DNA of 64,000 bases from Syntrophaceae bacterium (GTDB lineage: Bacteria; Desulfobacterota; BSN033; UBA1163). The stretch lies in assembly GCA_013388645.1 (NCBI GenBank), contig JACAEV010000140.1, positions 9,700 through 73,699 of the forward strand, in the 5' to 3' direction. The notes under the pieces are model-generated. The model worked only from the letters and a program-made list of their open reading frames with translations, did no database searches and had not been told where the DNA came from. The position numbers and the translations under genes are program-made. Shown piece by piece: positions 3,227-7,806 of the stretch (position 1 is the first letter of the stretch; the number at the start of each line of letters is the position of its first letter).

Positions 3227-4396
3227 CTATCCCCAGATCCCGGGGATGGGTTTCCCACAATATCGACACTTTCCCTCCTTCAAGTGGATCTCTCCCACCA
3301 TATAACCTGTCCGTTGAATGATCATTTTCTTGCATTTTGGGCAGAAAGTGTTCTCGGCTGCATGTCCTGGAATATTTCCGATATAAACGTACTCGAGACC
3401 GGCGGATAAAGCGGCCTCTCGGGCCTTCTCTAAGGTCGAAACGGGTGTTGGGGGAAGAGTCTTAAGTTTGTACAAGGGATAGAATCGAGAGAAATGGATG
3501 GGCGTATCTGAACCCAATTCTTTTTTGATCCAGGTACACATTTCTTTTAGCACTGACATCTCATCATTTTTGGTGGGGATGATGAGGGTGGTGATCTCCA
3601 GGTGGACGTTCTCTTGTTTCAGCGTTTTCAGTGTTTCAAGCACTGGATGGAGTTCTCCGCCACACAATTCACGATAAAAACTCTCCGTAAATCCCTTTAA
3701 ATCAATATTGGCGGCATCCAACACTTTGCAGAGGTTTTTGAGGGGAGCTGGATTGATAAAACCATTGGAGTGGGTGACGTTGAGAAGACCTGCTTTCTTC
3801 ACGAGTAAACTGATATCTGACATATATTCATAGAAGATCATTGGCTCCACATAAGTGTAAGCCACTGACCGGGCTCCGATCTCTTTTGCTCTGCTCACGA
3901 TCAATTCTGGTGGGACGTCATAGCTATATACATCCTCTGGGGAGGCCTGGGAGATCTCCCAATTCTGACAGAACTTACATTGGAAGTTACACCCTGCAGT
4001 GGCGAGCGAAAAGGAGGTCGTTCCAGGAAGGACATGGAAGAAAGGTTTCTTTTCAACCGGATCTAAATGAACCGCACAAGGATTTCCGTAAACTAAGCTA
4101 TAGTATTTACCATCCCGATTTTCCCGTACCCGACAAATACCTCTTTTCCCTTTAGCAACGCGGCACCGATGTGGGCATAGTTCACACTGAATCTCCCCGC
4201 CTTCCAATGGAGTGTAATAGGGCGAGAGTTTTGTCTTGATCAGCCCCTTTTTGGCCATTTGGGCATGGGAGAATGTCGCAAGGCTCGATAAAGAAACCGA
4301 GGAAAGGACACAAAGACTGGCCCCACAGAGACGCAAAAATTCCCGTTTTGTGAGGAGAGGAATGGAAGTAATTGGATCGGCTTGCCATTTGTCCAT
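3227..4396 (-). CDS. Radical SAM enzyme, PflX/AmmeMemoRadiSam-like (PFL-activase-related), with Tat-type signal peptide
   Basis: CNFQCKFCQNWEISQ CxxxCxxC radical SAM motif and an N-terminal CELCPHRCRVAKGKRGICRV Cys motif. The C-terminus has CPKCK...CRYCG. The N-terminus (TKREFLRLCGASLCVLSSVSLSSLATFSHA) looks like a KR-variant twin-arginine signal. Confidence 0.75.
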   Translation of the reverse strand: MDKWQADPITSIPLLTKREFLRLCGASLCVLSSVSLSSLATFSHAQMAKKGLIKTKLSPYYTPLEGGEIQCELCPHRCRVAKGKRGICRVRENRDGKYYSLVYGNPCAVHLDPVEKKPFFHVLPGTTSFSLATAGCNFQCKFCQNWEISQASPEDVYSYDVPPELIVSRAKEIGARSVAYTYVEPMIFYEYMSDISLLVKKAGLLNVTHSNGFINPAPLKNLCKVLDAANIDLKGFTESFYRELCGGELHPVLETLKTLKQENVHLEITTLIIPTKNDEMSVLKEMCTWIKKELGSDTPIHFSRFYPLYKLKTLPPTPVSTLEKAREAALSAGLEYVYIGNIPGHAAENTFCPKCKKMIIQRTGYMVGEIHLKEGKCRYCGKPIPGIWG

Positions 4397-4489: not shown

Positions 4490-5545
4490 ATGGAAATTAC
4501 ACGTCGAGGTTTTATTAAACATTCTTTTCTTCTTGGGAGTTCATTTCTTTTCTCTTCTTCCCCCGTTTATTCAGCGGTGAAGAAAGAAGTAAAATGGATT
4601 CCAGCCTATGAAAAATTGGAAATGGATGGGAAATTGGCTCAAAGGGTGAAGCAAGCCTATGCCATATTTGAAAATTGTCACCTCTGCCCCAAAAAGTGTG
4701 GGGTCAATCGTCAAAAGGGGGAAAAGGGGTTCTGCAAAGCTCCATTGAAACCGGTCATTTTCAGCTATCATCCTCACTTCGGCGAAGAGAGGGCTTTAGT
4801 TGGGGGAAAGGGTTCTGGAACTATATTCTTTTCCAACTGCAACCTTCGCTGTATCTTCTGCCAGAACTGGCCTATTTCTCATGAGGGAAGAGGGAAAGAA
4901 ATTCAAGATGAAGATCTGGCTGACGTGATGCTAAAACTCCAGAGCATGGGATGTCATAATATCAACCTTGTCACCCCTACCCATGTCATGCCCAATATCT
5001 TGAATGCCACGCGAATGGCCCTGAAGAAGGGCCTTCATATCCCTTTGGTTTACAATACCAGTGGCTATGAACGTTTAGAGATCGTGAAACTTTTGGAGGG
5101 GATTGTTGATCTCTATTTACCGGATTTGAAATATATGGATTCGGATAAGGCAGCGAAGTATTCAGCCGGGGCTTCTGATTATCCTGAAGTGGCAAAAAAA
5201 GCAATTCTTGAGATGAACCGGCAGGTAGGCGTTCTCCAATTGGATAAAGAGGGAATTGCGATTCGTGGTTTGATGATCCGACACTTGGTCATGCCCAACC
5301 GAGTGGCTGGGACAGAGAAATTCGTCAAATGGGTAGCTGAAGCCCTCCCGAAAAATACTTACGTCAATATCATGGCTCAATATCGTGTAGAGTATAAAGC
5401 TTATGATTATCCAGAGATTGCTCGTGGAATTACCGTTCAGGAATTTATGGAGGCAATGGATTGGGCTGAAAAATATGGATTGACCAACCTCGACCCTCAA
5501 TCAGTAGCACTCAAGAATTTTTATCACCAACGCCGATCAAACTAA
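4490..5545 (+). CDS. Radical SAM enzyme, PflX-like (paralogue of 3227..4396), with canonical Tat signal peptide
   Basis: MEITRRGFIKHSFLLGSSFLFSSSPVYSA is an RRxFIK twin-arginine motif followed by a hydrophobic core and an AxA-like site. CNLRCIFCQNWPISH radical SAM motif. CHLCPKKCGVNRQKGEKGFCK N-terminal Cys motif. Divergent from 3227..4396 across a shared AT-rich promoter region. Confidence 0.75.
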   Translation: MEITRRGFIKHSFLLGSSFLFSSSPVYSAVKKEVKWIPAYEKLEMDGKLAQRVKQAYAIFENCHLCPKKCGVNRQKGEKGFCKAPLKPVIFSYHPHFGEERALVGGKGSGTIFFSNCNLRCIFCQNWPISHEGRGKEIQDEDLADVMLKLQSMGCHNINLVTPTHVMPNILNATRMALKKGLHIPLVYNTSGYERLEIVKLLEGIVDLYLPDLKYMDSDKAAKYSAGASDYPEVAKKAILEMNRQVGVLQLDKEGIAIRGLMIRHLVMPNRVAGTEKFVKWVAEALPKNTYVNIMAQYRVEYKAYDYPEIARGITVQEFMEAMDWAEKYGLTNLDPQSVALKNFYHQRRSN

Positions 5546-5978
5546 ACCCGTATGGAAATATCGGATTAAATACAATAAACCCCCTGAGAGAGGCTGGGCT
5601 TTTAAACCTGAGCTCGGTGATCGATAAGGATCTAAAACTTTCTATATTAACTATCCCCGGTTTAAATACTGGGGCTTTTTAATTGGATCAATTGCGATCA
5701 AACTGGGTTAAAATGCGAGGATTATTAGCACATTAATCCATTCGATTTTATTTGGTATTTTAAATTGGCAATAAGATGCGAATAAAAACCTCTCAAATAT
5801 AAGTTTTCGTTCTATTCTCACCCGTATAACCAAAATCCAGTTTATTTGTAACCAAATAATTTCATTAATATTTTTAGCTAACCTTTTTGAATAAGGACCC
5901 AAGAATTGTGGTATTAAAATTGCTCTATTTTAACCAAAAACCATTAATAAGTCGTTGACTGAGGGAAGGTTGATTCAA

Positions 5979-6119
5979 ATGTGGCAAAACTGGATCATTG
6001 GTTTATTAGGAACTTGGTTAATCGTTGCGTCTTTTATTATCGATGGGAATCTTATTAATCAATTAGTTGTTGGGATTGCTGTTGCCATTTTAGGTTTTTG
6101 GAAAGCTATTCAAGGTTAA
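5979..6119 (+). CDS. 46-aa hydrophobic two-helix membrane peptide (MWQNWIIGLLGTWLIVASFIIDGNLINQLVVGIAVAILGFWKAIQG)
   Basis: ATG is preceded by GAGGGAAGG. The stop lies 19 nt before the radical SAM gene 6139, whose own RBS TAAGGAGG follows, consistent with translational coupling. The peptide is Gly/Trp-rich with two predicted TM helices and is not in the ORF track (<60 aa). Confidence 0.35.
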   Translation: MWQNWIIGLLGTWLIVASFIIDGNLINQLVVGIAVAILGFWKAIQG

Positions 6120-6138
6120 TTGATAAGGAGGATGCGAA

Positions 6139-7560
6139 ATGAACTTTTCAGAACAAATCAAAGATCTTACCGGTCAACAGGTTTCCAGGATGATTGTTGA
6201 ACTTTTAAGTAGGGTTTCTGATGAGCGGTTGATTCAATTGACTTATTTAGGAGAAAAATTGACATCTGATTATGAGATTTTAGGGGCCATCAAAGGCGTC
6301 AGAAATATGCTTGAAACTCCAGGACATCCTTCAAAAAAATTGTTCAGAGAGGTTCTGGAGTATCTCCCCCCCAAAAATCGAACCATTGTCTTTAATACTC
6401 TCTTTCACAACGCCTGGTTTATGGGAAATAGAAAAAGGGATCAATTTGAAAAGGAGCATGGATTTCGACCTCCCTTTGTCATGATTCTTAGCCCCACCTG
6501 GCAATGTAATTTGAGATGCGCGGGTTGCTATACTCTCGGTTACCAGAGATATCCCGGGCTTCCTTATGATCTAATTAAACGTATTTTGAGAGAATGTATG
6601 GATATTGGTCTTCACTTTATTACTGTCCTGGGAGGGGAACCCTTTATGTATCCTCATCTCTTTCAAATGATCGAAGATCACCCACAGATCTTTTTCCAGG
6701 TTTATACCAATGGGACATTGATGACCAGGGAGAAGGCAGAAAGGATCAGAGATTTAGGAAATGCCATGGTGGTCGTGAGCTGCGAAGGCTATGAGGAAGA
6801 GACGGATAAATGGAGAGGCCCTGGAGTCTATAAAAAGATCATGGAGGCAATGGATCATCTTCGTGAGGCACACGTCCTTTTTGGTTCTTCAGCAACCGTC
6901 ACCAAGGATAATGTGCAGGTCGTCTCCTCTGAAAAGTGGGTGGACCATCTTTTGAAGAAGGGGATTATCGCCCAGAATTATTTTCTTTATATCCCTGTAA
7001 ATGGACAAGGGGATATCAATCTCATGGTCACTCCGGAGCAACGAGACCATCTCCGGAAACAGGTCATTAAATTCAGAAGAACCAAACCGATGTTTATCCT
7101 TGATTTTTGGAATGATGGGCCTCATGTCCGTGGATGTATTGCCGGAGGGAGGAGATACTTTCATATTAATGCGAATGGAGATGTCGAGCCTTGTGTTTAT
7201 ACCCACGTGGCCATGGACAATATTAAGAATGTTTCTTTAGCGGAGGCACTCGATAGCCCTCTCTTCAGGGCCATTCGAAGGAGACAGCCCCATAATGAGA
7301 ATCATCTCAGGCCCTGCATGATCATCGACAATCCTGAACGACTGAGAGAAATTATTGAGGAGACCCATCCTTATTTTACACACCCCGGGGCAGAGGAAGT
7401 TGTGACCACCATGAAAGAGGAGATGGATGCCTATGCTGCAAGATTTGCAGTCTATGCAGATAAGGTCTGGAGAGAAGAGTATCTCAAGCCATCGACTATT
7501 TCAACGAGTTGCGCTTCCTCCAGCATCGGAGTTTCCATGGCGATGAAATCCGGCTCGTAA
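6139..7560 (+). CDS. Radical SAM domain protein with C-terminal auxiliary Cys cluster (HpnH-related/SPASM-like family), ~115-aa N-terminal extension
   Basis: WQCNLRCAGCY CxxxCxxC motif in a context (FVMILSPTWQCNLRCAGC, ITVLGGEPF) resembling adenosylhopane synthase HpnH. C-terminal GCIAGG...VEPCVYTH...RPCMIID Cys residues. Confidence 0.65.
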   Translation: MNFSEQIKDLTGQQVSRMIVELLSRVSDERLIQLTYLGEKLTSDYEILGAIKGVRNMLETPGHPSKKLFREVLEYLPPKNRTIVFNTLFHNAWFMGNRKRDQFEKEHGFRPPFVMILSPTWQCNLRCAGCYTLGYQRYPGLPYDLIKRILRECMDIGLHFITVLGGEPFMYPHLFQMIEDHPQIFFQVYTNGTLMTREKAERIRDLGNAMVVVSCEGYEEETDKWRGPGVYKKIMEAMDHLREAHVLFGSSATVTKDNVQVVSSEKWVDHLLKKGIIAQNYFLYIPVNGQGDINLMVTPEQRDHLRKQVIKFRRTKPMFILDFWNDGPHVRGCIAGGRRYFHINANGDVEPCVYTHVAMDNIKNVSLAEALDSPLFRAIRRRQPHNENHLRPCMIIDNPERLREIIEETHPYFTHPGAEEVVTTMKEEMDAYAARFAVYADKVWREEYLKPSTISTSCASSSIGVSMAMKSGS

Positions 7561-7806
7561 TTACCAAGGAGTCCATAATTGAAAAGACATATCGTTCTGA
7601 AAATCTCCCCTTTTGCCAAAGAGGGGTAATTCCTCCCTTTGCAAAAGGGAGGGGAGGAGGGATTTGGTCTTCAATGTCCATACAATTATGGACTGATTAG
7701 TATATCTTCTCAGCTTTGGGTCTTCTGATTGCGTTGGCATTCCTTTAACTCCCTGTCACTCCATTGACAACATCAATTTTTTTGTTATATTGAAGCGACA
7801 TTTTAG

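Follow-up and report, generated by a model that had tools for sequence, protein, structure and literature searches.

A conserved 46-residue membrane protein gene paired with an Mss-family radical SAM enzyme gene under predicted sigma-54 control in a Syntrophaceae bacterium

Organization of the locus

The stretch analysed here, called the window, comprises 64,000 nucleotides of the assembly GCA_013388645.1 from a Syntrophaceae bacterium (contig JACAEV010000140.1, positions 9,700 to 73,699 of the forward strand), and all coordinates below are positions of this window. The subject is a pair of genes on its + strand, namely a small open reading frame (ORF) for a 46-residue membrane protein (the peptide) and, directly downstream, the gene for a radical S-adenosylmethionine (SAM) enzyme of 473 residues, together with the spacer in front of them. 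Their features are listed as follows.

5655..5684, + strand: intrinsic terminator with a 7-bp stem, five G-C pairs and a T-run, ending the radical SAM gene at 4490-5545
5693..5730, + strand: distal enhancer-like site, with TGCGA at 5693 and 5714 and the degenerate partner TAGCA at 5726
5777..5795, + strand: proximal enhancer-like site TGCGA-N9-TCTCA, conserved in relatives
5909..5924, + strand: sigma-54-type promoter TGGTATTAAAATTGCT, with GG at 5910-5911 and GC at 5922-5923
5979..6119, + strand: gene for the 46-residue two-helix membrane protein (putative single SPW-repeat unit), ATG start
6125..6131, + strand: Shine-Dalgarno sequence AAGGAGG of the radical SAM gene
6139..7560, + strand: gene for the Mss-family radical SAM enzyme, 473 residues, with a twitch/partial-SPASM domain
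6139..6459, + strand: N-terminal domain of the enzyme, five helices, residues 1-107, not a RiPP recognition element (RRE)/PqqD fold
6505..6528, + strand: CX3CX2C motif (C123, C127, C130) of the radical SAM [4Fe-4S] cluster
7135..7317, + strand: auxiliary-cluster region, C333-X13-G-X4-C352 and C393

The stop codon of the peptide gene lies 19 nt before the ATG of the enzyme gene. An equivalent Shine-Dalgarno sequence was found before the enzyme gene in all the relatives compared, in which the gap between the two genes is 19-45 nt. The anatomy of the gene pair is assigned with high confidence. A preliminary description of this DNA, made from the letters alone, had reported a two-helix, Gly/Trp-rich and Cys-free peptide of 46 residues upstream of a 473-residue radical SAM protein with an N-terminal extension of ~115 residues, and these statements agree with the ORFs, with the hairpin predicted by AlphaFold and with an extension of ~107-115 residues ahead of the radical SAM core. 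The 19-nt gap and the separate ribosome-binding site of each gene were also read correctly. The genes had further been called translationally coupled, which is not supported because they do not overlap and each is preceded by its own Shine-Dalgarno sequence.

The small membrane protein

The peptide (MWQNWIIGLLGTWLIVASFIIDGNLINQLVVGIAVAILGFWKAIQG, 46 residues) contains four Trp, six Gly and no Cys. Its homologues were obtained by protein search as 24 clusters, most of which have 45-46 residues; where a longer call was made (up to 65 residues), the N-terminus is extended. Conservation is even from Met1 to the C-terminus, with W2, W5, G8, L10, F19, N27, G32 and G39 invariant and all four Trp conserved. 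The structure predicted by AlphaFold from 25 sequences (predicted local distance difference test, pLDDT, 75) consists of a helix at residues 2-21, a three-residue turn of the type D/N-G-N and a helix at residues 25-45. The median ratio of nonsynonymous to synonymous substitution rates (dN/dS) for ten loci was 0.09, as calculated from the computable pairs with unsaturated dS, synonymous sites being mostly saturated across these loci. Because of the 24 homologue clusters, the dN/dS ratio and the predicted hairpin, the small ORF is judged to be a real gene under purifying selection, more than a chance ORF.

A match to the Pfam profile of the SPW repeat (PF03779) was obtained at profile positions 1-47 of 93 with 24.5 bits, below the cutoff of 31.5, and the same profile was matched by all 27 of 27 members of the peptide family at E≤0.01, always as one repeat unit. 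The likeness consists in the two-transmembrane-helix unit, the peptide family fitting the first half of the profile, whereas SPW repeat proteins carry two such units; the eponymous Ser-Pro-Trp position reads Ala-Ser-Phe in the peptide. SPW units are transmembrane helix pairs of unknown function (PMC8078820), and a literature search for the SPW repeat together with radical SAM returned nothing relevant, the repeat being described only in that structure-prediction paper. In the sources containing its sequence, the peptide is labelled 'hypothetical protein' or is nameless.

Conservation of the gene pair

A peptide homologue of 45-48 residues was found directly upstream of the enzyme gene in L001-L004 and L089-L092, the enzymes of which are 69-85% identical to that of the window, and the pair was also detected, through the peptide P0131, in L085-L088. 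The peptide gene precedes the enzyme gene in every relative with an enzyme at least ~68% identical, and a hidden Markov model of the peptide matched only loci with an enzyme at least 70% identical, scoring 9 of 9 such loci with the window included. Genomes, taken as one per species, were scanned for the enzyme by using an 11-sequence alignment, and at least 584 of them contained a relative. Among the best 80 of these, the peptide was found in the four closest only (L005-L008, enzyme identity 70-88%), and the enzyme occurs without it in the other 76; it is absent from the next clade (L009-L018, Thermodesulfobacteriota, 59-63% identity) and from the vicinity of the 40-50% identical relatives of a dozen phyla.

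Metagenome contigs were scanned by using the peptide as the seed, and 60 of the resulting 61 loci were confirmed as peptide matches by tblastn. Wherever more than 100 nt of downstream sequence was available, the enzyme gene starts ~25-135 nt after the peptide (56 of 56 loci, 52 with an intact and four with a truncated enzyme gene). The co-occurrence of similar small peptides with homologous radical SAM genes, which the preliminary description had put forward as a check, is thereby found within one clade only. Approximately 70 relatives of the locus come from peat, sediment and groundwater metagenomes. In a neighbour-joining tree, the peptide-bearing enzymes form one monophyletic group, which points to a single acquisition of the peptide.

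The four loci with a truncated or internally deleted enzyme and an intact peptide gene (L113, L125, L134 and L137; in L134 the enzyme comprises residues 2-91 followed by 375-471) may be either decaying copies or assembly artefacts. In members of the peptide-less sister clade (L010, L011, L016 and L017), the enzyme gene is directly preceded by a gene for a ~98-residue NifX/NifB-C-like protein (Pfam Nitro_FeMo-Co, E 1e-10), with a sigma-54 activator gene ahead of it in L010 and L011. Small ORFs of 73-79 residues with two predicted transmembrane helices adjoin Mss-family genes elsewhere, upstream in Omnitrophota (L072:1108-1329 and L081:1669-1893) and downstream in a Parcubacteria genome (L064:4958-5197). 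These ORFs share the pattern LG...LG...W(W)...V(I/F)(K/L)GC(I/L)G...(A/V)G, have no sequence similarity to the SPW peptide and gave only sub-threshold noise in a Pfam search.

Domain structure and family of the radical SAM enzyme

By Pfam search, a Radical_SAM domain was assigned to residues 120-246 of the enzyme, with the CX3CX2C motif at residues 123-130, and a SPASM-type Fe-S region to residues 333-388. Downstream of the core, only C333, C352 and C393 are invariant among 39 diverse homologues, and this is read as a twitch-like pattern for a single cluster, not as the seven-Cys SPASM motif. The AlphaFold model of the enzyme has a pLDDT of 89 and a predicted template modelling score of 0.88. 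Residues 1-107, with block means of pLDDT of ~53-92 that are lowest in the first 20 residues, were modelled as five helices without a beta-sheet, because of which this domain is not regarded as an RRE; PqqD was not matched in the enzyme by Pfam. The domain is common to the whole enzyme family, peptide-less members included. The best matches among solved structures were SkfB, SuiB, ChlB and CteB, which are maturases of peptides that are ribosomally synthesized and then modified post-translationally (RiPPs).

None of the NCBIfam equivalogs fits the enzyme, the best being NirJ2 with 86 bits against a cutoff of 500. The preliminary description had related the enzyme to the adenosylhopane synthase HpnH. 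The HpnH family (TIGR03470) gave 47.4 bits against a cutoff of 225.05 and ranked 21st, with 20 radical SAM families higher; the label was rejected because this score is far under the cutoff of the curated family, and the similarity is assigned to the superfamily level only. In an exhaustive search of representatives, the enzyme family comprised 560 representative clusters at E<1e-30, with members mostly of 450-500 residues aligning from the N-terminal extension to ~residue 450. The relatives belong to Thermodesulfobacteriota, Actinomycetota, Bacillota, Atribacterota, Nitrospirota, Omnitrophota, Patescibacteria and Armatimonadota. Genes adjoining those of the distant relatives encode a lipid A-type acyltransferase, a B12-radical SAM protein and GT2, SDR and thioesterase proteins, as well as MMPL, BcrAD_BadFG and DUF2229/HGD-D (Ger/PlsA-type) proteins. 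A lipid enzyme is suggested because of the phylum spread and these gene neighbours.

Mss, the bacterial membrane-spanning lipid synthase, identified only in 2022, is a radical SAM enzyme by which two fatty-acid tails are joined to form diabolic or iso-diabolic acids under anoxic conditions (PMC13159169). It is reported from anaerobic bacteria of the same phyla (PMC13159169; PMC11868695), and the validated enzymes are those of Thermoanaerobacter ethanolicus (WP_129545148.1) and Thermotoga maritima (Tmari_0825) (Sahonero-Canavesi et al. 2022, PMC13159169). Homologues of Mss have been delimited in publications at an identity of at least 30% with e≤1e-50 (PMC13159169) or e≤1e-30 (PMC13274423). The homologue of Ca. 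Fermentithermobacillus carboniphilus (L080; HHW18939.1/QUL99180.1) is 40% identical to the window enzyme; its own relatives at 54-58% identity belong to the groups from which Mss has been described, namely Caldicellulosiruptor, Moorella, Thermosediminibacterales and Thermoanaerobacterales, and NLC15665.1 and HHT85941.1 are close to it. All four accessions stand in the 'Mss homologe' column of a supplementary table of PMC13274423. The window enzyme aligned with these four listed homologues over approximately the full length at 38.7-40.0% identity with 348-368 bits, and with twelve Bacillota relatives at 38-43% identity with 332-368 bits. Because of this full-length match to proteins published as Mss homologues, the enzyme is placed, with high confidence for the family, in the Mss family within the limits drawn by its discoverers; the comparison with the two validated proteins is indirect, and the published cutoffs are permissive.

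The family tree (neighbour-joining) is star-like, with many clades ~40% apart. Two paralogues were found in single metagenome-assembled genomes (MAGs), 62% (L010) and 44% (L045) identical to the window protein in JALVSJ01 and 44% (L040) and 42% (L083) identical in JAOZOU01, and two paralogues per genome imply a putative sub-functionalisation in the Mss family. Some clades (L032-L049 and L067-L074) adjoin Ger/PlsA-type genes and look like the canonical Mss-Ger pairing. Thermodesulfobacteriota paralogues outside the window clade adjoin genes for BcrAD_BadFG and DUF2229/HGD-D (Ger/PlsA-type), MMPL, SDR, thioesterase and acyltransferase proteins. The co-occurrence of Ger/PlsA with Mss was used by the authors of the Mss work for the prediction of producers of brGDGTs (branched glycerol dialkyl glycerol tetraethers).

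Sigma-54 promoter and enhancer sites in the upstream spacer

The preliminary description had noted an AT-rich non-coding region of ~430 bp before the pair. The spacer (5546-5978) is indeed non-coding and 433 bp long, but the regulatory sites within it had been overlooked. The terminator at 5655-5684 parts the radical SAM gene at 4490-5545 from the transcription unit of the peptide and the enzyme. The promoter, TGGTAT-N5-TTGCT with the canonical 10-nt separation of GG and GC, was found by aligning the spacer with those of two relatives, and the transcription start is predicted at ~5934-5937. The element TGGTAY-N5-TTGC is present in 11 of 11 distinct related loci. Of 51 metagenome loci, 45 have it no more than 200 nt from the peptide start, where chance alone would give ~6e-4 per locus. 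Among 20 relatives without the peptide, 19 have no such element upstream. In relatives, the proximal enhancer-like site reads TGCGA-N9-TCGCA at ~110-132 bp upstream of the -24 element and is presumed to be a binding site of an NtrC-type activator, and the distal site is an inverted pair TGCGA...TCGCA at ~180-216 bp upstream. The spacer is thus predicted, with high confidence for the regulation, to hold a conserved sigma-54 promoter with enhancer sites, and the peptide and enzyme genes are read as co-transcribed.

In many relatives (L001, L003, L085, L089, L092 and others), genes for a histidine kinase of the HisKA_7TM/GAF type and a response regulator of the Sigma54_activat/HTH_8 type lie directly upstream of the pair. 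Many close relatives have no kinase gene in the 3-6 kb upstream but keep the promoter and the enhancer sites.

Flanking genes

Immediately upstream of the pair are two more radical SAM genes, at 3227-4396 (- strand) and 4490-5545 (+ strand). One is of the AmmeMemoRadiSam type (TIGR04337, 387 bits) and its product starts ...LLTKREFLRLCGASLCVLSS...SHA; the other is PflX/activase-like and its product starts MEITRRGFIKHSFLLGSSFLFSSSPVYSA. Both N-termini resemble twin-arginine export signals, and exported radical SAM enzymes would be unusual. Synteny of the AmmeMemoRadiSam-type and PflX-like genes with the pair extends to the closest relatives of the window, being seen in L005 and in ~18-21 of 60 metagenome loci (for example L093, L099, L106 and L128), and a PflX-like gene is located ~1 kb from an Mss-family gene in four Atribacterota genomes (L053, L066, L078 and L082). 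A functional link of these genes to the pair is possible.

Farther upstream, a gene for an Fe-S scaffold protein of the NifU_N/IscU type (2076-2576, + strand) recurs shortly upstream of the peptide in L085-L088 and in nine metagenome loci, and may serve the supply of Fe-S clusters for the group of radical SAM enzymes encoded here. The gene ahead of it (16-2049, + strand) encodes a protein of 677 residues with a Sulfatase domain (alkaline-phosphatase superfamily) at residues 282-566 and an N-terminal region of ~280 residues without a Pfam match, an architecture of the LtaS/phosphoglycerol-transferase type; the arrangement of the sulfatase and NifU genes was seen in only two of 60 metagenome loci. 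On the pair's other side, two adjacent G+C-rich hairpins, CUCCCCUUUUGCCAAAGAGGGG and CCUCCCUUUGCAAAAGGGAGG, are found ~45 nt after the enzyme stop codon (7604-7661, + strand), with a fold z-score of -2.9 against shuffled sequences; they have no T-run and hence were not called by the terminator scan.

The neighbours of the pair, taken over the window and the relatives, are genes for regulators, NifU, other radical SAM proteins, RF-1 and CoA-disulfide-reductase-like proteins, with a Lip_A_acyltrans gene near the pair in L001. Conserved genes for a protease, an exporter or immunity are lacking near the pair, both in the window and in the neighbourhoods of the relatives. Hopanoid genes, the presence of which the preliminary description had proposed to check, were not found among the annotated ORFs at 16-38753 of the window, and Ger/PlsA, B12-radical SAM and acyltransferase genes were found nowhere within its 64 kb.

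Proposed function and alternative explanations

The most likely reading of the locus is an operon for regulated membrane remodelling that includes a small partner not noticed before. In its specific form, a sigma-54-controlled operon of an Mss-family lipid-modifying enzyme and a small membrane accessory subunit, this explanation is given somewhat better than even chances. The two genes would be transcribed as one operon from the sigma-54 promoter by an NtrC-type activator acting from the upstream enhancer sites, which in many relatives is encoded together with a seven-transmembrane (7TM) histidine kinase; for this window, the kinase/activator pair would have to lie elsewhere. By means of 5'-deoxyadenosyl radicals, the enzyme would remove hydrogen from unreactive carbons close to where the acyl chains of phospholipids end and, aided by a single three-Cys auxiliary Fe-S cluster, would form the C-C bond joining two tails. 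The 46-residue hairpin, made together with the enzyme, would serve as an accessory subunit within the membrane, either docking the soluble enzyme onto the bilayer or helping to present the lipid tails to it. An accessory subunit is favoured because the peptide gene lies invariably just upstream of the enzyme gene, because a membrane protein is paired with an enzyme which has to reach the bilayer interior, and because Mss-family genes of Omnitrophota and Parcubacteria likewise have unrelated small ORFs with two transmembrane helices beside them. A membrane partner of a lipid-acting enzyme had been one of the two roles offered in the preliminary description, and it is the best fit to an Mss-family enzyme with an SPW-type membrane hairpin. 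The confidence in a lipid substrate of this paralogue is moderate, and that in the role of the peptide is about even.

Several observations weigh against this explanation. Membership of the Mss family was reached through published homologue lists, drawn up with loose BLAST cutoffs, and, as regards the validated WP_129545148.1 and Tmari_0825, through indirect identity. The window clade is one of several Thermodesulfobacteriota paralogue lineages, and two diverged paralogues (L010 and L045) stand in a single MAG. The Ger/PlsA, B12-radical SAM and acyltransferase genes are missing from the window, and so is the kinase/activator pair (tblastn with the L001 proteins gave no match at E<1e-3 and noise at E<10). 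The substrate of the window paralogue may differ from that of canonical Mss, because its clade is separate and is accompanied by the peptide, the sigma-54 promoter and often a two-component system instead of Ger.

The other role offered in the preliminary description was that of a RiPP-like precursor, in which the peptide would be the substrate of the enzyme, crosslinked or otherwise modified, with conserved Trp or aliphatic residues as possible sites. The tight and invariable adjacency of the genes, the four conserved Trp, the structural matches to RiPP maturases and an N-terminal extension equal in length to the N-termini that carry the RRE in SkfB and SuiB all speak for it. However, that extension is helical, lacks a PqqD match and is also present in family members without the peptide; the enzyme has three conserved auxiliary Cys instead of the seven of SPASM; and the peptide is a predicted transmembrane hairpin, conserved evenly from its first residue, with neither a leader/core split nor a cleavage motif. 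Processing, export and immunity genes are not conserved nearby, homologues of the enzyme are published as lipid enzymes, and the family does without the peptide in 76 of the 80 best genomes among at least 584. The peptide is therefore probably not a peptide substrate of the enzyme, and a RiPP-like system is judged quite unlikely. Still less weight is given to an Mss-descended enzyme that has been recruited in this Thermodesulfobacteriota clade to work on, or by way of, a transmembrane micro-protein, either by linking aliphatic or Trp side chains of the hairpin to one another through C-C bonds or by attaching a lipid tail covalently to the hairpin within the bilayer; both versions would amount to a membrane-embedded radical protein modification switched on by a 7TM sensor kinase.

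Small membrane proteins are known as modulators of sensor kinases, as in MgrB-PhoQ and MzrA-EnvZ, and a serious rival, although an unlikely one, is that the peptide is such a regulator of the 7TM histidine kinase, with feedback of the MgrB type, and is merely co-transcribed with the enzyme. It is the first gene of an operon controlled by sigma-54 and a two-component system, its clade is the one associated with HisKA_7TM kinases, and the peptide-less L010 and L011 have homologues of the sigma-54 activator near the enzyme and no adjacent homologue of the HisKA_7TM kinase. The linkage to the enzyme, however, is invariant (56 of 56 loci), whereas that to the kinase is variable, the kinase being absent here and from the 3-6 kb upstream in many close relatives; the four contigs with the peptide beside a truncated enzyme fit either view. 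The tighter linkage to the enzyme weighs against kinase feedback without deciding the matter. A neo-functionalised Mss paralogue with a non-lipid or other substrate, to which the small membrane protein is linked genetically and not in function, is unlikely to the same degree. It agrees with the separate lineage and own regulation of the window clade, with the missing Ger, MMPL and acyltransferase neighbours of other paralogues and with the fact that two paralogues can share one genome, but the architecture, the motifs and the three auxiliary Cys are all kept, an obligate membrane-protein neighbour fits a membrane substrate, and L001 has a Lip_A_acyltrans gene close by. As for an HpnH-type adenosylhopane synthase with an added domain, the weak TIGR03470 match across the radical SAM core is outweighed by 20 better-scoring families, by the lack of hopanoid genes among the annotated ORFs and by the far stronger full-length matches to Mss homologues (330-370 bits), and this identity is practically refuted.

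Comparison with known systems

Like Mss, the window enzyme is a radical SAM protein of ~450-470 residues with CX3CX2C and a C-terminal Fe-S region, its family is confined to anaerobes with the same spread of phyla, it is 38-43% identical over the full length to published Mss homologues, and other members of the family adjoin Ger/PlsA-type ether-lipid genes. The window enzyme differs in that its clade forms a lineage of its own within Thermodesulfobacteriota, has a 46-residue membrane protein dedicated to it and lacks a Ger gene nearby. In the searched sections of PMC13159169 and PMC13459092, no accessory protein, sigma-54 promoter or two-component control of Mss was found. The archaeal tetraether synthase Tes/GDGT-MAS (PDB 7TOM) was not matched by the enzyme in sequence at E<0.01, and it has additional clusters, a rubredoxin-like site and isoprenoid ether lipids as substrates.

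With SkfB, SuiB and CteB, the best solved-structure matches, the locus shares a small ORF directly upstream of a radical SAM gene, an N-terminal extension and a C-terminal Fe-S domain. It differs from them in an enzyme without the RRE fold and with three instead of seven auxiliary Cys, and in a leaderless transmembrane hairpin without processing or export genes. For the regulation, DesK-DesR is an example of the control of a membrane desaturase by a sensor kinase, and MgrB of a small-protein partner of a sensor kinase. The likeness lies in a membrane sensor kinase set over a lipid-modifying enzyme and in a tiny membrane protein within the regulated operon, and the difference in the 7TM input domain and in an activator working via sigma-54.

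Significance

Bacterial membrane-spanning lipids, including the branched GDGTs used as palaeothermometers, occur in anoxic soils, peats and sediments, and their producers are poorly identified. The locus and its ~70 relatives suggest that in one Thermodesulfobacteriota lineage an Mss-type enzyme is encoded in an inducible operon, that this operon is controlled by a sensor kinase embedded in the membrane and by sigma-54, and that the enzyme needs a dedicated membrane partner of 46 residues. If this is true, a testable handle would be available on when bacteria stitch their bilayer into a monolayer, and the peptide would be a first candidate for a helper which brings a soluble radical enzyme to the centre of the membrane. 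If the substrate of the enzyme differs, the locus would still be a clean case of a conserved micro-protein left unnamed by gene callers and databases.

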